NCBI GenBank assembly: GCA_963827685.1
Contig: CAWHBU010000002.1
Span: forward strand, 192,001-256,000
Direction: 5' to 3'
DNA from: an uncultured delta proteobacterium
Lineage (GTDB): Bacteria > Desulfobacterota > BSN033 > UBA1163
Length of the DNA stretch: 64,000 bases
Part shown: piece after piece, positions 11,417 to 17,803 of the stretch
Layout: each line of letters opens with the position of its first letter
Position numbering within the stretch: position 1 is the stretch's first letter
Program-made: the position numbers and the translations under genes
Notes under the pieces: model-generated
Told to the model about the DNA's origin: nothing
What the model saw: the letters and a program-made list of their open reading frames with translations, nothing else
Databases searched by the model: none

Positions 11417-13996
11417 TTAGGCGAGCGCTTCGGCCACCAGCTCTGTAATATCCATCACTTTGATCCGGCCCTTCTTCTCTTTTCGAAGTCTTGCCGCAGC
11501 CAGCTGTAGGTTGGACTTACAGGCCGGACAGGCTGAGACAATAGTATCAGCTCCTATGATCGAAGCCTGTTGAACGCGTTTGTAAGCTATATCTAAGCTC
11601 ATTTCCGTGTCATAAGCCTTAAGGCCCCCGCCGCCACCGCAGCATTTAGCGAGATTTCTGTTATGAGGAAATTCAATCAATTCTACTGATGGGACCGCAC
11701 GGATGACATTGCGGGGTGGGTCATAGATATTCATGTGCCGCCCGATATCGCAGGGGTCGTGATAAGCCACTTTCATTTTAGCCCCATTCTTAAAAATGAG
11801 CTTACCGTTGGTGATGAGCTTTTCCAGATATTCTACCGTATGGTAAACCTGAACGTTAGGAAACTTATTGTGTTTTGGGTAAAGATCTTTGAAGGTCCGG
11901 TAGCATCCGGCGCAGGTGGTAACAATCTCTTTGAGACCCATCCGTTCGAAATGACTTATATTATTTTTGATACATCTCTCAAATTCTTTTTGATCCCCTA
12001 CCAGATAAGAGATATATCCGCAGCAGGACTCCTCATTCCCCAAAGTCGTATAGTCAATATTCGCCTGATTCATGATCTTCAATGTACTTGGAATAAGGTT
12101 GATGTCCTGATAAGAAGCGACACATCCGAAAAAAAGGAGAGTGGACGCTTTTTCTTTAAACTTAAACTCTGTGGGATAGATGTCCGCCCTTTTTCCCGTG
12201 GCTTCCCCAAAGGGGTTTCCTTTTTCCTCAATCGATTGCAGCAGCGTCCGGTGGACGGACGGAAGATACCCTGCCTCCACCAGTCGCACGCGGGCGGCCT
12301 GGACAATATCGGAAATCTTAACCCCCGCGGGACAGACGGCATTGCAGTTAAGGCATGTGGTACACGGATAAAATCTTTCAGCCAGTTCTTCCGATGGTTT
12401 TAATCTTCCGGTGAGGAGGTGATAGGCCAAGATCACCCTTCCGCGCGCATTGATAGATTCGAGGGAAGTCTCCCCATAGGTTGGACACCCGGCTCGACAG
12501 AATCCGCACATGATACAGGCCATAATCTCATTATCCAGTGCCTCGCCAAAGGATTGAATCTCGCCAGGCCTATCAACAAGGGGTAGAAAGGCAAACTTCT
12601 CATAAATGTCTTGAATGGAGTCATCGAATCCCATCTTCCCCGGATTGAGTATATTGTTGGGGTCAAGGGCTTTTTTGATCTCCTTCATGACTTCGAGAGT
12701 TCCCCCAAGCTCCCTCTTTATATAAGGCGATTTGGCCATTCCTGTTCCATGCTCGGCCGTGAGCGTGCCCCTGAGCCGTATCGTGAGGTCAATTAAGTCT
12801 TTGGCTACTTCTCGGATGGTATTCCATTGCTCCTTATTTCTGGGGTCAGAGATGATGATGGGATGAATATTCCCGTCACCGATATGGCCGAAGGTATTGA
12901 TCGGGATGTGATGTTTCTCTGAGATTTTGTTGATTTCCATAATGGCTTCCGGGATTTTGGTGATAGGTATTCCCGGGTCGTCCATAATGGACTGCATCCT
13001 TGATCCTCTCTTGACTTTTGACAAGGAGGCAACAATCCCTTGACGGGCGGCCCACATCTTAAGACGTTTCGCGGGATCATCCTCCCATTTATTCTCGATG
13101 CCGTTATTGGCCTCACAAATTTTATTGATTTTTGCTATGTTTTCCTGAACAGCCTTTTTATTCCCATCGATTTCAATGAAGAGGAGGCAGCCGACTCGAT
13201 CGGGGATGTTGAGTCCCATGGCTTTATTCACCACATCGATCGTCACTTTGTCCAAAATCTCACAGGAAGAGAGAGCAATGCCTGAGGTCAAGATCTCCCG
13301 AACGGCCTTTCCAGCCTCCAGGGTAGAGGGAAATCGCGCCTCTGCAAAAGCAACATATTCGGGAACGGGGAGGATTCTTAGAATGATCCTTGTGATAATT
13401 CCCAGCGTCCCCTCGGCCTGGGTGAAGAGCTGGGTAAGGTCGTATCCGGAAGACGTCTTGCTTAAGACCGAACCTGTGTTAATCGTTCGACCATCGGCCA
13501 GCACGACTTCCAGCCCCAAGACATAATTCTTCGTTGTCCCATACTTCAGCGCCCTATTTCCGCTGGCATTGGTTGAAACCATTCCTCCCAGCGAGGCAAG
13601 ATTAGCACTCCCAGGATCTGGAGGGAAAAAATGGGTGGGGGCAACGGCTGCATTGAGATGGTTGCATATGACGCCAGGTTCGACCACGACATATCCGTTC
13701 TCTTTGTCTATCTCTAAAATACGATTCATCCTGCTCAGGTCAAGCAGAATGCCTCCCTTGGCAGCCAATGCGCTACCGACCGCGCTTGTCCCCGAACCTC
13801 TTGGGGTCACAGGGATTTTTTCCTGATTGGCCAAAGACATTATTTTTGAAACTTCATCTGTTGTTTTGGCGAAGACAATGACATCCGGAACGGCCTCGTG
13901 GACCGATAGATCCCTGGAGTAACAGAGTCGTTCGATTTCATCGGCCCTCACATTTCTTTCGCCGACGATTTTGATCAATTCTTTGATATAGTCCAT
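11417..13996 (-). CDS. FAD-linked oxidase (GlcD/D-lactate dehydrogenase-like) fused to 4Fe-4S and CCG domains (GlcF-like)
   Basis: PRGSGTS, PPDPGS, GHIGDGNIH, TAEHGTG, NPGK; CIMCGFCRAGCP; ESCCG, YHDPC, CCGGGGG. Confidence 0.9.
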   Translation of the reverse strand: MDYIKELIKIVGERNVRADEIERLCYSRDLSVHEAVPDVIVFAKTTDEVSKIMSLANQEKIPVTPRGSGTSAVGSALAAKGGILLDLSRMNRILEIDKENGYVVVEPGVICNHLNAAVAPTHFFPPDPGSANLASLGGMVSTNASGNRALKYGTTKNYVLGLEVVLADGRTINTGSVLSKTSSGYDLTQLFTQAEGTLGIITRIILRILPVPEYVAFAEARFPSTLEAGKAVREILTSGIALSSCEILDKVTIDVVNKAMGLNIPDRVGCLLFIEIDGNKKAVQENIAKINKICEANNGIENKWEDDPAKRLKMWAARQGIVASLSKVKRGSRMQSIMDDPGIPITKIPEAIMEINKISEKHHIPINTFGHIGDGNIHPIIISDPRNKEQWNTIREVAKDLIDLTIRLRGTLTAEHGTGMAKSPYIKRELGGTLEVMKEIKKALDPNNILNPGKMGFDDSIQDIYEKFAFLPLVDRPGEIQSFGEALDNEIMACIMCGFCRAGCPTYGETSLESINARGRVILAYHLLTGRLKPSEELAERFYPCTTCLNCNAVCPAGVKISDIVQAARVRLVEAGYLPSVHRTLLQSIEEKGNPFGEATGKRADIYPTEFKFKEKASTLLFFGCVASYQDINLIPSTLKIMNQANIDYTTLGNEESCCGYISYLVGDQKEFERCIKNNISHFERMGLKEIVTTCAGCYRTFKDLYPKHNKFPNVQVYHTVEYLEKLITNGKLIFKNGAKMKVAYHDPCDIGRHMNIYDPPRNVIRAVPSVELIEFPHNRNLAKCCGGGGGLKAYDTEMSLDIAYKRVQQASIIGADTIVSACPACKSNLQLAAARLRKEKKGRIKVMDITELVAEALA

Positions 13997-14186
13997 GGTC
14001 CTACCTCTCCATTATGTTTGATAAGATTGAACGATATCATTATAAAACAAATATCAGGAATCTACACACTGATCCGTTCTTTTTCATGGTTGAGATGAAA
14101 TGGATTTTCTTGGTAGGGAGGACGAATAAGAATTATCTTTACATAACCCTCCCCTCTCCCAAAATGAAGGAGTAGGAAAATAAGGC

Positions 14187-14247
14187 TTGACAAAAGGATA
14201 CACCCTATATAAGGTGTAGAGCATAGATACACCCGATTTGAGGTGTA
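14187..14247 (+). promoter_or_regulatory. Sigma70 promoter overlapped by two TACACC-N8-GGTGTA palindromic sites
   Basis: TTGACA 14187-14192, TAAGGT 17 nt later; palindromes 14199-14218 and 14228-14247. Confidence 0.7.
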
Positions 14248-14262
14248 AATGGAGACTATATA

Positions 14263-14970
14263 ATGGAGAGAATCGTAGCCGCCGTGACATGTGACATCGT
14301 TCGATCACAGAGATACTCCACGGAGCAAAGAAGAAAGATTGACGCAATCTTGAAGAAAGAATTCACGACGGTGTCCAAGACTTACAAGAACGCCGTTCAC
14401 ACCCCTACTTCTTTCAATGTTACTGTAGGTGATGAATTCCAGTTTGTCTTGACAAAAGTAGAGAAAGCTTATGAGGTAACGGTTTTTTATCGGGCATTGT
14501 TTGCCATTGCGGATCTTGCATCCATGTTCAGCTTCCGCTCCTCTATTGGCATCGGCGAAATCGCTGTCGAAAATAAGAAGGATTCTTATTCCCAAGATGG
14601 TCAGGCTTTTCATCGTTCTAGACTTGGTATCAATTTCTTCCGAGATCACAAATATAGAGGAAAGAGGCGGACTAAAATTGTAACCGGCGACATTCACCTT
14701 GACGAAACCCTGGATATGATTCTCATGTACCAGGATCTCCTGGAAGAAAAGTGGACTCGTGCCCAATGGGAGGCTATTCGCTGGCGATTGATGTTACCTA
14801 CCTATGAGGAGATTGCGAAAAAACTAGGCGTTGCTTATCAAAATGTCCAGAAACGACTGAAGGCAGCGAACTGGGATGAGTTCAGCCAAGGGGTTGAATT
14901 TGTTGAGAAGGTCTTAACCTCACACCTTCAAAAGGGTGCAACCGGCCATTTCACCTTTGAAAGGGTGTGA
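14263..14970 (+). CDS. SatD-family protein (nucleotide-cyclase-like palm domain + C-terminal HTH)
   Basis: AVTCDIVRS, GDEFQ, RSSIGIG, DGQAFHRSR, WTRAQ...YEEIAKKLGVAYQNVQKRL. Confidence 0.85.
   Translation: MERIVAAVTCDIVRSQRYSTEQRRKIDAILKKEFTTVSKTYKNAVHTPTSFNVTVGDEFQFVLTKVEKAYEVTVFYRALFAIADLASMFSFRSSIGIGEIAVENKKDSYSQDGQAFHRSRLGINFFRDHKYRGKRRTKIVTGDIHLDETLDMILMYQDLLEEKWTRAQWEAIRWRLMLPTYEEIAKKLGVAYQNVQKRLKAANWDEFSQGVEFVEKVLTSHLQKGATGHFTFERV
14921..14969. promoter_or_regulatory. Second pair of CACC-N8-GGTG palindromes at satD 3' end, just upstream of the DUF3307 gene
   Basis: cacacc-ttcaaaag-ggtgca (14921-14940) and ttcacc-tttgaaag-ggtgtg (14950-14969), 29-bp spacing. Confidence 0.65.
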
Positions 14971-14976
14971 TGGGGA

Positions 14977-15711
14977 TTGAGGATTAACATGATGTTTTGG
15001 AAGATTCTCCTTGCCCATGTGTTTACTGATTTTATTTTCCAACCTGACCCATTGGTCGAAAATAAAGGGAAGATTGCGGTTCTTTTCGTTCACAGTCTTA
15101 TCTTTTTTCTCCTTTCCATTGTAATCCTTTTACCGACCTTTTCTTATCAGACGGTCATCGCTCTTGTGTTCCTAGCATTATTTCATGGTTCTGTTGACTA
15201 TTTAAAAAACCTGATACAAAAACGTACTGGAAAAAATCATTGGGGCTACTTTCTGGGAGATCAGGTAATTCATATGTTGGGAATCGGAGCCGTCGTCTTT
15301 TTTCTGGATAAGAAATACTTGCATGCATGGGTTGATGTCTTATCTACCTATTGGTCGAAACCTTCTGTATTTCTGTTTCTTTCCCTCTTTGTTCTGATTG
15401 TATTCGGAGGAAACTTCTTCACCGGAGTCCTGTGTAAGGGGTTTTCGGGAAGCCTAAATTCAGAAAAGAAACCAGGGATTGAGAGGGCAGGACGGTATAT
15501 TGGAATTGTAGAAAGGAGTTTGGTCTTGACAGCTGTGCTCTTTGGCAAGATGGAATTTATCGGATATATCTTTGCCGCCAAATCCATTGCCCGCTATCCT
15601 GAAATGAAAGAAGGGAGTCATTTCGCAGAGTATTATTTGATTGGAACTTTGACCAGCATTGTTATAGCTTTTTTCGGAGGTCTGCTCTTAAAGTATCTGT
15701 TAGGATGGTGA
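14977..15711 (+). CDS. DUF3307-family multi-pass membrane protein
   Basis: LAHVFTDFIFQ, HGSVDYLK, DQVIH, GRYIGIVER, AAKSIAR, EYYLIGTL; start may be the ATG a few codons downstream. Confidence 0.85.
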   Translation: MRINMMFWKILLAHVFTDFIFQPDPLVENKGKIAVLFVHSLIFFLLSIVILLPTFSYQTVIALVFLALFHGSVDYLKNLIQKRTGKNHWGYFLGDQVIHMLGIGAVVFFLDKKYLHAWVDVLSTYWSKPSVFLFLSLFVLIVFGGNFFTGVLCKGFSGSLNSEKKPGIERAGRYIGIVERSLVLTAVLFGKMEFIGYIFAAKSIARYPEMKEGSHFAEYYLIGTLTSIVIAFFGGLLLKYLLGW

Positions 15712-15763
15712 TGGGTTTTGCCTTTTGTTCTGTCTCGATTTTTGGATAAAAAGATACCTTACA

Positions 15764-17803
15764 TTACAAGGATTGATAGACCAGCTCGCTTAGATCGTAG
15801 ACGGCCATGCTTTCTGTCTTCCCCTTCTCTTTGATCCCATCGAATAACATCGTCAGACAGTAAGGACAGGCTGTTCCTATTAACTCGGCCTTAACCGCGA
15901 TGGCATGATCGGTTCGCATCTGATTAATCCGCGTTCCGATATGTTCCTCCATCCACATTCTTCCTCCACCCGCCCCACAGCAGAAGCTCCGCTGACGATG
16001 CTGCTTCATCTCTATCAACTTTAAGCCGGGGATGGATTTTAAAATCTTTCGAGGCGGGTCGTAGATCTGGTTGCCCCTTCCGAGGTAACAAGAATCGTGA
16101 TAGGTGATCACTTTGTTGATAGGTTTGGTGAGTTTCAATTTTCCAGTTGAGATTAGCTCTGTTAAAAATTGGGTGTGGTGAACGACTTGAAATTCCCCGC
16201 CAAATTGGGGGTATTCATTTTTCAACGTATGGAAACAATGAGGACATATCGTGAGGATTTTTTTAACGCCGTATCGTTTCATGATTTCAATATTGGCTTC
16301 CGCCGTCGTCTGGAATAGGTATTCGTTGCCGATTCTCCGTGCCGGGTCTCCACAACATCCTTCCTCATTGCCTAAGATTCCAAACCGGATACCGCTCGCT
16401 TGGAGAATCTTCACTATCGAAGTGGCTACCTTTTGATTTCGGGCATCGAAGCTTCCCACACATCCCACCCAAAAGAGGAACTCAGGATTTTCTGCTTCAG
16501 CAAAGTTTTTCACTCCCAAGTCTTTGGCCCATTCTGCCCGCGTTCCCCGACTCGCCCCCCAGGGGTTGTTGCTCTTCTCGAGATTCTTTAAAGTTGATCG
16601 TACTTCGGAGGAGTACTTTGTTTCCACAAGAACCAAATATCGGCGGAGCTCCACGTTCCGTCTCACCTGCTCTATATAGACCGGGCATGCCTCCTCACAA
16701 GCCATGCAGGTCGTGCAGGCCCAGAGCTCGTCGTCGCCCACGCTGGTTTCCATGATGGCCTCTGGTTGACGCTGATCCCGAGGAGTGGCAAGGAGCTTCG
16801 GCCCCTCGCGCCACAGGTGTTCCTTCAAGTTTTGGGTCATCCGTCTGGGGGAAAGGGGCTTCCCTGTTAGATGCGCCGGGCACACATCCTGGCAGCGACC
16901 GCAATTCGTACACGCCTCAAGATCTAACATCTGCTTCCAGGTAAGCTCGGAGAGCTCCCGTGCTCCAAAGGTCTCTGCTTCTTCGAAATTGGGCATAGGA
17001 TCAAGGGCACCTCTTGTCTTGAAGGAACGGAAGAATATATTTAGGGGCGATAGAAATAAGTGCTGTAAAGGAGAATGGCTTATGGTGACGTAGGCAAAGA
17101 GTATGAATGCCGGTATGGCGTGGATCAGTACTCTGTGCCAGACCAAAAGTTCATTCAAAGGCGCAGTCGGTAGAATGAGAAAGAAACGAGAAATGAGATA
17201 ACTGACGGGTACCCAAGAAAGCCAATCCGGAACAACACCCGGCCCGATGATGGCTATCCGGTAGCCTTTAACAAAGTAGCCGGTAATTAAAAGCACAAAT
17301 CCCCAAACAAAAATCAAGGTCCTGTCGGGCTTGGTAACCAAACGGGACGGTCTGATTACGTATCTTCGGATGATCGCCAGACCTCCGCCCATCAAGACCA
17401 GAAGTCCGCCGATTTCTGAGACAAAAGAAACATATAAAAAGATGTTTTGAGGCGGATTCGTCAATCCAACAGGGTAAGAGAAAAGCCTCACGGTTTTTCC
17501 CAGAAAGATTAAAGCCGTTCCCCAGAAAATCAAAAAATGCATCGTGCCGGGATATAACTCCTTCCAAATCCGGGCATTGGCAAAAGTAACGGCTAAAACG
17601 GTTCTGAGTCGGGCAGCCACTTGACCGGAACAATCTTGATCCTTTCCGAGTTTCCATAGCCGATAATGTTGCCACCAAAAGCTCAATATGAAAACGGCAA
17701 CGAGACCGATGAAAAGAACGAGAAAGCCAAGGATGATCGGCAAAAAGACTTTCATGATGTAAACTTCTTGACTTGTCCAGAAAATCCGATTTAGGTGATC
17801 CAT
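15764..17803 (-). CDS. Membrane-anchored Fe-S oxidoreductase (NarI-like TM + 4Fe-4S + CCG; HdrD/FadF-like)
   Basis: CTNCGRCQDVCP, CTTCMACEEACP, EEGCCGDPARR, YHDSCYLGR, CCGAGGGRMWMEE. Confidence 0.88.
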   Translation of the reverse strand: MDHLNRIFWTSQEVYIMKVFLPIILGFLVLFIGLVAVFILSFWWQHYRLWKLGKDQDCSGQVAARLRTVLAVTFANARIWKELYPGTMHFLIFWGTALIFLGKTVRLFSYPVGLTNPPQNIFLYVSFVSEIGGLLVLMGGGLAIIRRYVIRPSRLVTKPDRTLIFVWGFVLLITGYFVKGYRIAIIGPGVVPDWLSWVPVSYLISRFFLILPTAPLNELLVWHRVLIHAIPAFILFAYVTISHSPLQHLFLSPLNIFFRSFKTRGALDPMPNFEEAETFGARELSELTWKQMLDLEACTNCGRCQDVCPAHLTGKPLSPRRMTQNLKEHLWREGPKLLATPRDQRQPEAIMETSVGDDELWACTTCMACEEACPVYIEQVRRNVELRRYLVLVETKYSSEVRSTLKNLEKSNNPWGASRGTRAEWAKDLGVKNFAEAENPEFLFWVGCVGSFDARNQKVATSIVKILQASGIRFGILGNEEGCCGDPARRIGNEYLFQTTAEANIEIMKRYGVKKILTICPHCFHTLKNEYPQFGGEFQVVHHTQFLTELISTGKLKLTKPINKVITYHDSCYLGRGNQIYDPPRKILKSIPGLKLIEMKQHRQRSFCCGAGGGRMWMEEHIGTRINQMRTDHAIAVKAELIGTACPYCLTMLFDGIKEKGKTESMAVYDLSELVYQSL

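Follow-up and report, generated by a model that had tools for sequence, protein, structure and literature searches.

The locus analyzed here is a two-gene cassette within a 64,000-nt stretch of DNA from an uncultured delta proteobacterium (the window, in whose numbering all coordinates and strands are given). The first gene, satD (14263-14970, plus strand), encodes a 235-aa protein that matches the Pfam family SatD (PF16264) over residues 7-202 with 75.7 bits, against a cut-off of 29. The open reading frame of the second gene, here called the partner, opens at 14977, has its likely ATG at 14989 and ends at 15711 (plus strand), encoding a membrane protein of 240-244 aa that matches DUF3307 (PF11750) with 59.6 bits (cut-off 23), the match being confined to residues 7-109. 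A search of NCBIfam gave no family for the SatD or the partner protein of the window. Here it is proposed that SatD is, on balance, probably a dimeric one-component regulator that represses both its own promoter and the membrane gene behind it, with a toxin-antitoxin-like logic and a nucleotide-type input domain; DNA binding, repression, a nucleotide ligand and toxicity of the partner at this locus are inferred. The features to which the text refers, including the putative operators O1 to O4, are the following:

14175-15733, plus strand: whole cassette, comprising the promoter, satD, the partner gene and a conserved T-rich tail of about 20 nt; 87% identity to a copy in the related genome G010, with empty sites in congeners.
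14187-14192, plus strand: putative -35 hexamer TTGACA of the satD promoter, 7 nt before O1.
14199-14218, no strand assigned: putative operator O1, TACACC-N8-GGTGTA, a perfect 20-mer, conserved in close relatives.
14210-14215, plus strand: candidate -10 hexamer TAAGGT with a 17-nt spacer, inside the O1 spacer CTATATAA.
14228-14247, no strand assigned: putative operator O2, TACACC-N8-GGTGTA, spaced 29 bp from O1 and covering the likely start of transcription and the leader; in relatives the arms are conserved and the spacer is variable.
14251-14254, plus strand: satD ribosome-binding site GGAG, read from the sequence.
14263-14970, plus strand: satD, with a palm domain (residues about 1-140), a helical helix-turn-helix (HTH) domain (about 144-224) and a low-confidence tail encoded by O3/O4.
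14921-14940, no strand assigned: putative operator O3, CACACC-N8-GGTGCA, a weaker version within the last satD codons.
14950-14969, no strand assigned: putative operator O4, TTCACC-N8-GGTGTG, a weaker version that overlaps the stop codon of satD (14968-14970) and lies 20 nt ahead of the partner ATG.
14979-14983, plus strand: partner ribosome-binding site GAGGA.
14989-15342, plus strand: N-terminal membrane module of the partner, DUF3307, with the motifs HxxxDFxxQ, HxxxD and DQxxH (from Pfam PF11750, the alignment and the helical model).
15358-15711, plus strand: C-terminal membrane module of the partner, of no Pfam family, with the motifs AGxxIGxxER, AKSxxR and FAEYYLxGTLxS (from the alignment and Pfam search).

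The palindromic core CACC-N8-GGTG has four matches in the window, at 14201, 14230, 14923 and 14952, all of them at the satD locus and forming two pairs with 29 bp within each pair. Shuffled windows contained a mean of 0.61 matches, and none of 100 reached four. In the 5.2-Mb genome the 4-bp core has 98 copies (47 for a control pattern), whereas O1 and O2 are the sole perfect 20-mers of the motif, and the only close pairs among the 78 genomic sites with up to two mismatches to the 20-mer are the two at the satD locus. The motif pairs thus mark the satD cassette alone in this genome, and no wider regulon is visible. The window count, the shuffles and the genome scan bear out what an earlier reading of the DNA letters alone (the sequence-only reading) had claimed, namely the same palindrome four times as two pairs of identical spacing.

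Conservation of the sites was followed in 46 close-relative loci, 5 from related genomes and 41 from metagenomes, whose SatD proteins share 72-97% aa identity. All four exact site cores are present in 41 of the 46 loci, and the remaining five keep two or three (L095 being without upstream DNA). In 43 distinct upstream sequences of these relatives CTTGACAAA is invariant and always 7 nt ahead of O1, and the O1 spacer CTATATAA is highly conserved, while the spacers of O2, O3 and O4 are variable; the conserved O1 spacer therefore fits a promoter element embedded within O1. The TTGACA-17-TAAGGT layout would place O1 over the promoter spacer and -10 element and O2 over the start and leader, which is the layout expected of a repressor.

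The second pair lies at +660/+689 from the satD start in 44 of the 46 relatives and is shifted by 1-3 bp in two (L010 and L143), both of which have interrupted satD frames; the position of the first pair ranges from -60 to -154. Because pair 2 stays in place and pair 1 moves, the distance between the pairs varies from about 720 to 814 bp, with no helical phase kept among 45 relatives. DNA looping between the pairs, by which the sequence-only reading had satD possibly looped out, is for this reason not claimed. The arms of O3 and O4 are at least 95% conserved, while their 8-nt spacers and the DNA between the sites are variable (37 distinct junction sequences), and the repeat is not explicable by a repeated peptide, since the two sites are read in different frames (29 mod 3 = 2). 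In L007 and L104 an earlier satD stop leaves O3/O4 partly or wholly untranslated, with the sites retained. The protein tail that they encode has a mean predicted local distance difference test score (pLDDT) of 66 over residues 221-230 and 51 over residues 231-235, and is missing from many homologues. Taken together, the conserved arms, the variable spacers, the different frames, the survival of the sites beyond early stops and the low-confidence, often absent tail argue for selection on the DNA at O3/O4, and it is concluded that in the clade of the window the satD reading frame appears to have run over the junction operator (overprinting).

The family set comprised 87 SatD loci, 80 from a collection with one genome per species and 7 from relatives; 85 of them are non-duplicate, five of these being the window and its close kin. 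Arrays were scored as four alternating half-sites in the 6-N8-6 form with a period of 28-30 bp, the maximum being 24. A score of at least 22 was found in 37 of the 85 loci and in none of 255 locally shuffled controls. Of these 37 arrays, 24 are immediately 5' of satD and 11 are where satD meets the partner gene, 35 in all; the sites of the 37 are 29 bp apart in 30 arrays, 28 bp in six and 30 bp in one. A stricter pair search in which 27-31 bp was allowed found pairs in 33 of the 85 loci, with 37 pairs at 29 bp, nine at 28 bp and one at 30 bp. In many lineages the arrays are 80-170 bp upstream of satD, and across the family the putative array is always placed between a promoter and the partner gene. 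In the order of the Carnobacteriaceae genome G041, SatD is present in 36 of 151 genomes; of 30 SatD loci retrieved from this order, 29 have the partner directly behind satD and 26 have their best-scoring array upstream.

The half-sites vary by lineage and include TACACC, TATGCA/TATTCA, GATTCA, GTCAAC/GTAAAC, TTCAAC, TACAAG, CTTAGC, TATAAG and others, and across lineages their sequence follows the recognition helix of SatD. In an Auribacterota locus (L019) the residues from the first of the recognition helix onward read as in the window, AYQNVQKRLKAAN, and the arms are TACACC-like; a protein cluster (P0089) whose longest contig is equal in length to that of L019 (24,720 bases) has 37% overall identity to the window SatD. 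A Mantel-type test was made with the 32 loci scoring at least 22 in either zone, L010, L012 and L088 having been left out for broken or partial SatD frames. Half-site similarity correlated with the HTH at r 0.54 and with the rest of the protein at 0.45, and the partial r given the rest of the protein was 0.40, which was reached by none of 2000 permutations, values to be read with shared ancestry in mind. Among the 428 locus pairs with less than 40% identity, r was 0.40 for the HTH vs 0.19. The motif search around other satD loci, which the sequence-only reading had set as a test, thus found paired palindromes that recur and co-vary with the HTH, and this comparison points to the HTH of SatD itself as the binder of both site pairs, as that reading had supposed.

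Several loci differ from this pattern or add to it. In L009, L012, L030, L034, L072 and others, the half-site is GTTGAC or CTTGAC, that is, the -35 consensus; SatD, whose HTH has the best of its weak matches with sigma-70 region 4, may be derived from that region and compete for -35-like DNA. In four Bacillota loci (L056, L077, L084 and L231) the best array is 3' of the partner gene, with family-typical arms (TATGCG or GATTC), and such downstream arrays may regulate another gene. Eleven of the 87 loci, mostly from Calditrichota, have neither a partner behind satD on the same strand nor an array. In L022, L050, L051, L055, L062, L078, L083 and L085, also mostly Calditrichota, R120 is replaced within a FHRANA motif, and neither a downstream same-strand partner nor a 6-N8-6 array is found, so that this subfamily probably has a different architecture.

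The SatD model (pLDDT 86.6) consists of a beta-alpha-beta-beta-alpha-beta domain (residues 4-140) followed by a helical domain (144-224). Foldseek matched the first domain to class III cyclases and PycC with probability 1.0 and E-values from 2.6e-4 to 1e-3, the best match being the Pycsar cyclic UMP synthase 7r65_A (E 2.6e-4). A second aligner, VIA, gave GTP cyclohydrolase III (2qv6_A) at Z 13.4, with a root-mean-square deviation (rmsd) of 2.7 over 118 residues, class III cyclases at Z about 12 over 130-143 residues, GGDEF domains at Z about 11.9 and Cmr2 (Cas10) at Z 11.5. Because these scores lie within about 2 Z units, the palm domain of SatD is assigned to the palm/cyclase superfamily and not to a family. 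Of the likeness to class III cyclases that the sequence-only reading wished to see compared, the shared palm fold stands, but the comparison gives no family-level resolution from GTP cyclohydrolase III, GGDEF and Cas10. The CDIVRS and GDEFQ motifs noted in that reading are present in the window SatD, and in the alignment of 53 SatD proteins, all of which match Pfam SatD, the residues D11, S15, R23, GDEFQ (56-60), G96, G113 and R120 are invariant. A profile-profile alignment (hhalign) with 31 genuine cyclase domains from the genomes of relatives had a probability of 17% and an E-value of 0.0015; in this low-probability alignment D11 and D57 fall on the two invariant metal aspartates, and IGIGxGE falls on RIGINSGPV. 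The window SatD has no match to the Pfam family Guanylate_cyc (PF00211) at E up to 10, and 2 of the 53 members do, with a best E of 0.063.

Evidence for the HTH comes from weak profile matches. A PDB profile search with SatD returned the HTH proteins RhlR, GerE and NarL at E 0.05-0.7, as well as the cyclase Rv1900c at E 0.31. Sigma70_r4_2 scores 18.7 bits against the window SatD, under the cut-off of 25.7, and matches 29 of the 53 members at E up to 10, with a best E of 1e-5. A palm-type, cyclase-like fold fused to an HTH, as read earlier from the letters, is supported by both structure aligners.

The SatD homodimer model scored 0.72, while the best of three controls scored 0.02; the runs share at least 93% of contacts, with a pLDDT of at least 80. 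Among proteins solved as one-chain pairs 20 of 30 attain this mark, and among those solved as single chains 1 of 23; these counts are only rough for a model built from a custom alignment, to which resemblance to solved HTH dimers could also contribute. In the model, helices 148-159 and 203-213 make up a symmetric interface for which no palm residue is listed, so SatD is predicted to dimerise through its C-terminal helices, and pairing of palms between neighboring DNA-bound dimers may be compatible with this model. A search with the window protein as query found no fused or longer SatD forms, which is weak evidence. In the profile search, five proteins of 410-424 aa (P0120, P0126, P0128, P0131 and P0144) have two SatD stretches each; they look like tandem SatD-SatD fusions, which would fit a dimeric function.

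The partner model (pLDDT 91.7) is all-helical, with two modules at residues 1-113 and 124-240. A same-strand partner directly follows satD in 74 of the 87 loci, the genes often overlapping, and the C-terminal module is present in 74 of the 87, the DUF3307 module in 62. Partners of about 120 aa that correspond to the C-terminal module alone occur in L009, L012, L019, L025, L027, L030, L032 and L072, from several phyla including archaea. From these comparisons the C-terminal module, and not DUF3307, appears as the constant partner of SatD. The conserved His and Asp residues that the sequence-only reading placed in the DUF3307 helices do form motifs, conserved at about 70%, but the invariant residues of the partner (AGxxIGxxER, AKSxxR and FAEYYLxGTLxS) all lie in the C-terminal half instead. 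Pfam has no family for this half, DUF3307 being the sole Pfam domain of the partner, and no cyclic-nucleotide-binding domain was found in it by the same search. Structure searches with the partner gave no match in Foldseek at E up to 0.001 (best 0.81), a best Z of 8.8 in the VIA wide search, within the usual range of helical bundles, and a best score of 0.79 in the ESM Atlas, below the lead level of 0.9.

The cassette is an indel between congeners. SatD is patchy among related genomes (8 of 41). In three congeners (G002, G007 and G011, loci L204, L205 and L206) the two redox genes that flank the cassette in the window stand next to each other, 45-140 bp apart, and the 1.65-kb stretch is missing; the flanks of these empty sites align up to about 14109 and from about 15766. 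Genome G010 has an 87%-identical copy of 14175-15733 on another contig, away from the redox genes (L207), and G007 has a decayed copy with internal deletions (L208, on G007:C241) that retains O1/O2 and their promoter together with the first part of satD and the last part of the partner gene. The G+C content of the cassette is 0.40-0.45 and that of the flanks 0.45-0.52, and the window gene list contains no recombinase gene within the cassette. An imperfect inverted repeat lies near the cassette ends (14190-14205 vs 15713-15728; 16 nt, 81% complementary), which could be due to chance, a terminator remnant or U-tract, or an end repeat. In close relatives the downstream conservation stops about 20 nt past the partner stop codon, and in L007, L102, L108, L110-L113, L118, L119, L124 and L127 short repeated units resembling CGCCTTACG are found beyond the cassette end, the flanks being otherwise unrelated. 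A tblastn search of phage records gave no match, and a plasmid search gave three weak ones (26-28% identity). The profile search at E up to 0.001 collected 6,435 SatD cluster representatives (50% identity), the family being present in both bacteria and archaea.

Both genes adjoining the cassette are on the minus strand and encode FAD-oxidase/CCG/4Fe-4S redox proteins. The gene at 11417-13996 (859 aa) has an FAD-linked oxidase, a 4Fe-4S dicluster and two CCG domains in one fusion, and that at 15764-17803 (679 aa) has two CCG domains and 4Fe-4S dicluster domains, with an N-terminal stretch that is hydrophobic by eye. The two fusions resemble HdrD/GlcD-type redox modules and are adjacent in the congeners without the cassette. 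The gene calls, the Pfam matches and the indel among congeners confirm a self-contained two-gene unit on the strand opposite to the surrounding redox genes, as first read.

A phenotype is available from Streptococcus pyogenes. According to a pangenome meta-analysis of transposon-insertion sequencing (Tn-seq), satD is the single accessory gene scored essential. All 9 data sets of its supplement rate satD (group_1290, SP5448_RS04940) as 'Essential', and all 9 rate its neighbor in the operon (group_1858, SP5448_RS04935) as 'Non-essential'. An essential satD with a dispensable neighbor is the signature of a repressor or antitoxin that guards against a harmful neighbor.

In the proposed mechanism, a SatD dimer joined by its C-terminal helices would bind each 20-bp 6-N8-6 palindrome through an HTH of the sigma-70-region-4/LuxR type, with two dimers side by side on each 29-bp-spaced pair. 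Occupancy of O1/O2 would switch the satD operon off, because these sites cover the -10 and start region of the sole conserved promoter. O3/O4, directly before the partner ribosome-binding site, would provide a second block on the membrane gene, either as a transcriptional roadblock or by repression of a weak internal promoter. The N-terminal palm, with its two putative metal-binding aspartates, is the most likely input domain, and a nucleotide bound or turned over there would set the DNA binding or cooperativity of SatD. What the lineages would share as a target is the membrane partner, which is probably harmful when expressed without restraint, and the cassette would therefore behave in a toxin-antitoxin-like or addiction-like manner.

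A number of observations weigh against this interpretation. Under the fixed 6-N8-6 model the array score is below 21 in 34 of the 85 loci, and the covariation of half-site and HTH is confounded by shared ancestry, which inflates such tests. A consensus promoter scan listed neither the satD promoter TTGACA-17-TAAGGT nor any promoter at O3/O4, the nearest plus-strand candidate being at 14693-14720 (9 of 12 matches); the satD promoter is absent from the scan because its -10 hexamer is weak, with 3 of 6 matches only. The palindrome pairs are also able to fold as RNA hairpins (-20.3 kcal/mol for O3-O4). SatD could also be primarily an enzyme and regulate only secondarily, given that its catalytic-type residues are invariant. 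In S. pyogenes the operon partner is taken to be the DUF3307-type gene because the partner follows satD in 29 of 30 loci of that order, and the essentiality reported in the Tn-seq study could have other causes.

Among the alternatives, an unlikely but far from negligible one is that SatD controls an ordinary, non-toxic membrane enzyme or transporter (e.g., for the envelope or acid stress) in response to a metabolite, in a plain inducible operon. The regulatory architecture would be the same as in a toxin-antitoxin-like repressor system, and the DUF3307 module has His/Asp motifs which we take to be typical of membrane metal-dependent enzymes. Citing papers also link the sat genes of Streptococcus mutans to acid tolerance. 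However, a plain operon fits poorly with the S. pyogenes Tn-seq data, in which satD is essential yet accessory and its operon partner dispensable, with the patchy distribution (SatD in 8 of the 41 relatives, and in 36 of 151 genomes from the order of G041), and with the empty sites, the relocated copy and the decayed copy among congeners, which are features of a selfish or accessory module.

A more specific form of the repressor proposal is rather doubtful: SatD could be a DNA-templated nucleotide switch, in which the palms of adjacent operator-bound dimers would pair head-to-tail, explaining the 28-29-bp phasing, and a nucleotide at the composite site would set the cooperative repression of a toxic membrane protein. 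If true, such a switch would be a new class of toxin-antitoxin or abortive-infection system extending from bacteria to archaea, with a cyclase-fold, sigma-region-4-like repressor as an antitoxin that senses nucleotide state.

A quite improbable alternative is a nucleotide second messenger, in which SatD would have cyclase activity and its product would gate or activate the membrane partner in a defence of the Pycsar/CBASS type, the HTH serving for autoregulation only. The Pycsar synthase at the top of the Foldseek matches, the invariance of D11, D57, E58 and R120, the alignment of D11 and D57 with the class III metal aspartates, and the accessory, mobile nature of the cassette speak for such a system. 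Against it stand the low probability of that same profile alignment, the marginal contact of two members with Guanylate_cyc and a fold that does not separate cyclases from GTP cyclohydrolase III, GGDEF and Cas10. In PADLOC, SatD matches only mad1, over 25 HTH residues (E 0.0092), and the partner has no match at E up to 1; neither a cyclic-nucleotide-binding domain nor any other known Pfam domain accompanies DUF3307 in the partner. Catalysis by class III cyclases requires a palm-palm dimer of the catalytic domains, whereas the modeled SatD interface is predicted to lack palm residues. An essential cyclase with a dispensable effector, as the S. pyogenes data would have it, is also not what such a model predicts. 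The pairing of a cyclase with a membrane effector proposed in the sequence-only reading has thus found little support, and of the defence or toxin-antitoxin-like module that it foresaw, the toxin-antitoxin-like logic fits the Tn-seq data while no defence-system match beyond the HTH-level one was found in PADLOC.

That the palindromes are not SatD operators but RNA hairpins acting on partner translation or mRNA stability, sites of another host protein, or recombination sites is very improbable: as RNA, the O1-O2 and O3-O4 stretches do form more stable folds than their shuffled versions (-15.7 kcal/mol, z -4.0, for O1-O2; -20.3 kcal/mol, z -2.6, for O3-O4), O3/O4 are transcribed just 5' of the partner ribosome-binding site and the cassette is mobile, but O1 lies over the promoter itself, arrays are 80-170 bp upstream of satD in many lineages, half-sites covary with the SatD HTH and not with host lineage alone, the absence of motif pairs elsewhere in the genome leaves no wider regulon for a host factor, and the sites are internal to the cassette and not at its ends.

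The preferred reading, SatD as a repressor of its own operon and of the membrane gene, would give a large family of no known function a concrete, testable role, that of a repressor, predicted to be dimeric, which would read a defined 6-N8-6 operator code with a period of 28-29 bp, have a cyclase-type input domain and act on a conserved membrane protein. It would also explain why satD is, in the Tn-seq meta-analysis, the one 'essential accessory' gene of S. pyogenes. If true, it would add a type of regulator that joins a palm of catalytic appearance to an HTH like that of sigma region 4, and the window locus would add a second operator pair overprinted by the regulator's own coding end, with selection on DNA sites within a gene. 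In the accessible portions of the literature retrieved on SatD, DUF3307 and the sat operon, no account of a repressor role, operator arrays or a cassette was found, the DUF3307 literature retrieved being on a jumbo phage.

Among known systems, the satD-satE pair of the S. mutans sat operon belongs to the same Pfam family, which is named after S. mutans satD, and resembles the cassette in the partner directly following SatD in the order of the Carnobacteriaceae genome (29 of 30 loci). In the description of the S. mutans sat operon by Kremer et al. in 2001, satD was reportedly given no regulatory or structural role.

Pycsar shares with the cassette a cyclase-fold protein encoded beside a membrane protein, PycC being the top Foldseek match, but differs in that SatD has no PADLOC match beyond that of its HTH, the partner has no cyclic-nucleotide-binding domain, and the HTH and operator arrays of SatD point to gene regulation. 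Class III cyclases, GGDEF domains, GTP cyclohydrolase III and Cas10 share the fold of SatD residues 1 to about 150, in which two aspartates fall at metal-binding positions by the low-probability alignment; SatD, however, matches none of these at the level of sequence families, carries an HTH behind this domain and is predicted to form a dimer other than the head-to-tail catalytic one.

The PucR/CdaR regulators (Mycobacterium tuberculosis Rv2242, PDB 9f80) also have a palm/GGDEF-like domain followed by a C-terminal HTH. The Foldseek alignment of SatD with 9f80 covers 249 columns (E 1.5e-3) with an rmsd of 15 A, and the domain arrangement therefore differs. PucR proteins are longer, with extra N-terminal domains, and SatD differs from them in keeping the invariant GDEFQ and both aspartates. 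No PucR or HTH_30 match was found in Pfam for the window SatD, and neither family is among the 25 most frequent of the 81 that the 53 members match.

The HTH of SatD resembles those of LuxR/GerE proteins and sigma-70 region 4 through weak Pfam and PDB matches (RhlR, GerE, NarL, VpsT and SdiA), and many SatD half-sites (GTTGAC or CTTGAC) are like the -35 hexamer; the window SatD is nevertheless below the Pfam cut-off for sigma-70 region 4 (18.7 vs 25.7). Dimers of the LuxR type bind palindromes of about 20 bp, and to our knowledge arrays of two to four sites at a fixed period of 28-29 bp are not a feature of LuxR proteins.

A parallel in layout is the type II toxin-antitoxin operon hipBA of Escherichia coli with its repressor HipB. 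HipB is a small Xre-type HTH protein and HipA a soluble kinase, whereas SatD has a cyclase-fold domain, its partner is a polytopic membrane protein, and the second pair of the satD cassette lies 722 bp downstream, within the satD coding end. The hipBA operators, when checked, comprise four TATCC-N8-GGATA sites with spacings of 28, 39 and 28 bp, and both systems have four short-arm N8 palindromes as two pairs, spaced 28 bp in hipBA and 29 bp in the satD cassette. Each operon has two genes and begins with that of an HTH protein, which in the case of satD would be placed to repress its own promoter, and the streptococcal Tn-seq data likewise suggest an essential first gene and a dispensable second. 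Among the traits of toxin-antitoxin modules, the position of O1/O2 relative to the conserved TTGACA and the covariation with the HTH would fit operators lying over the promoter of the operon, as they do in hipBA.

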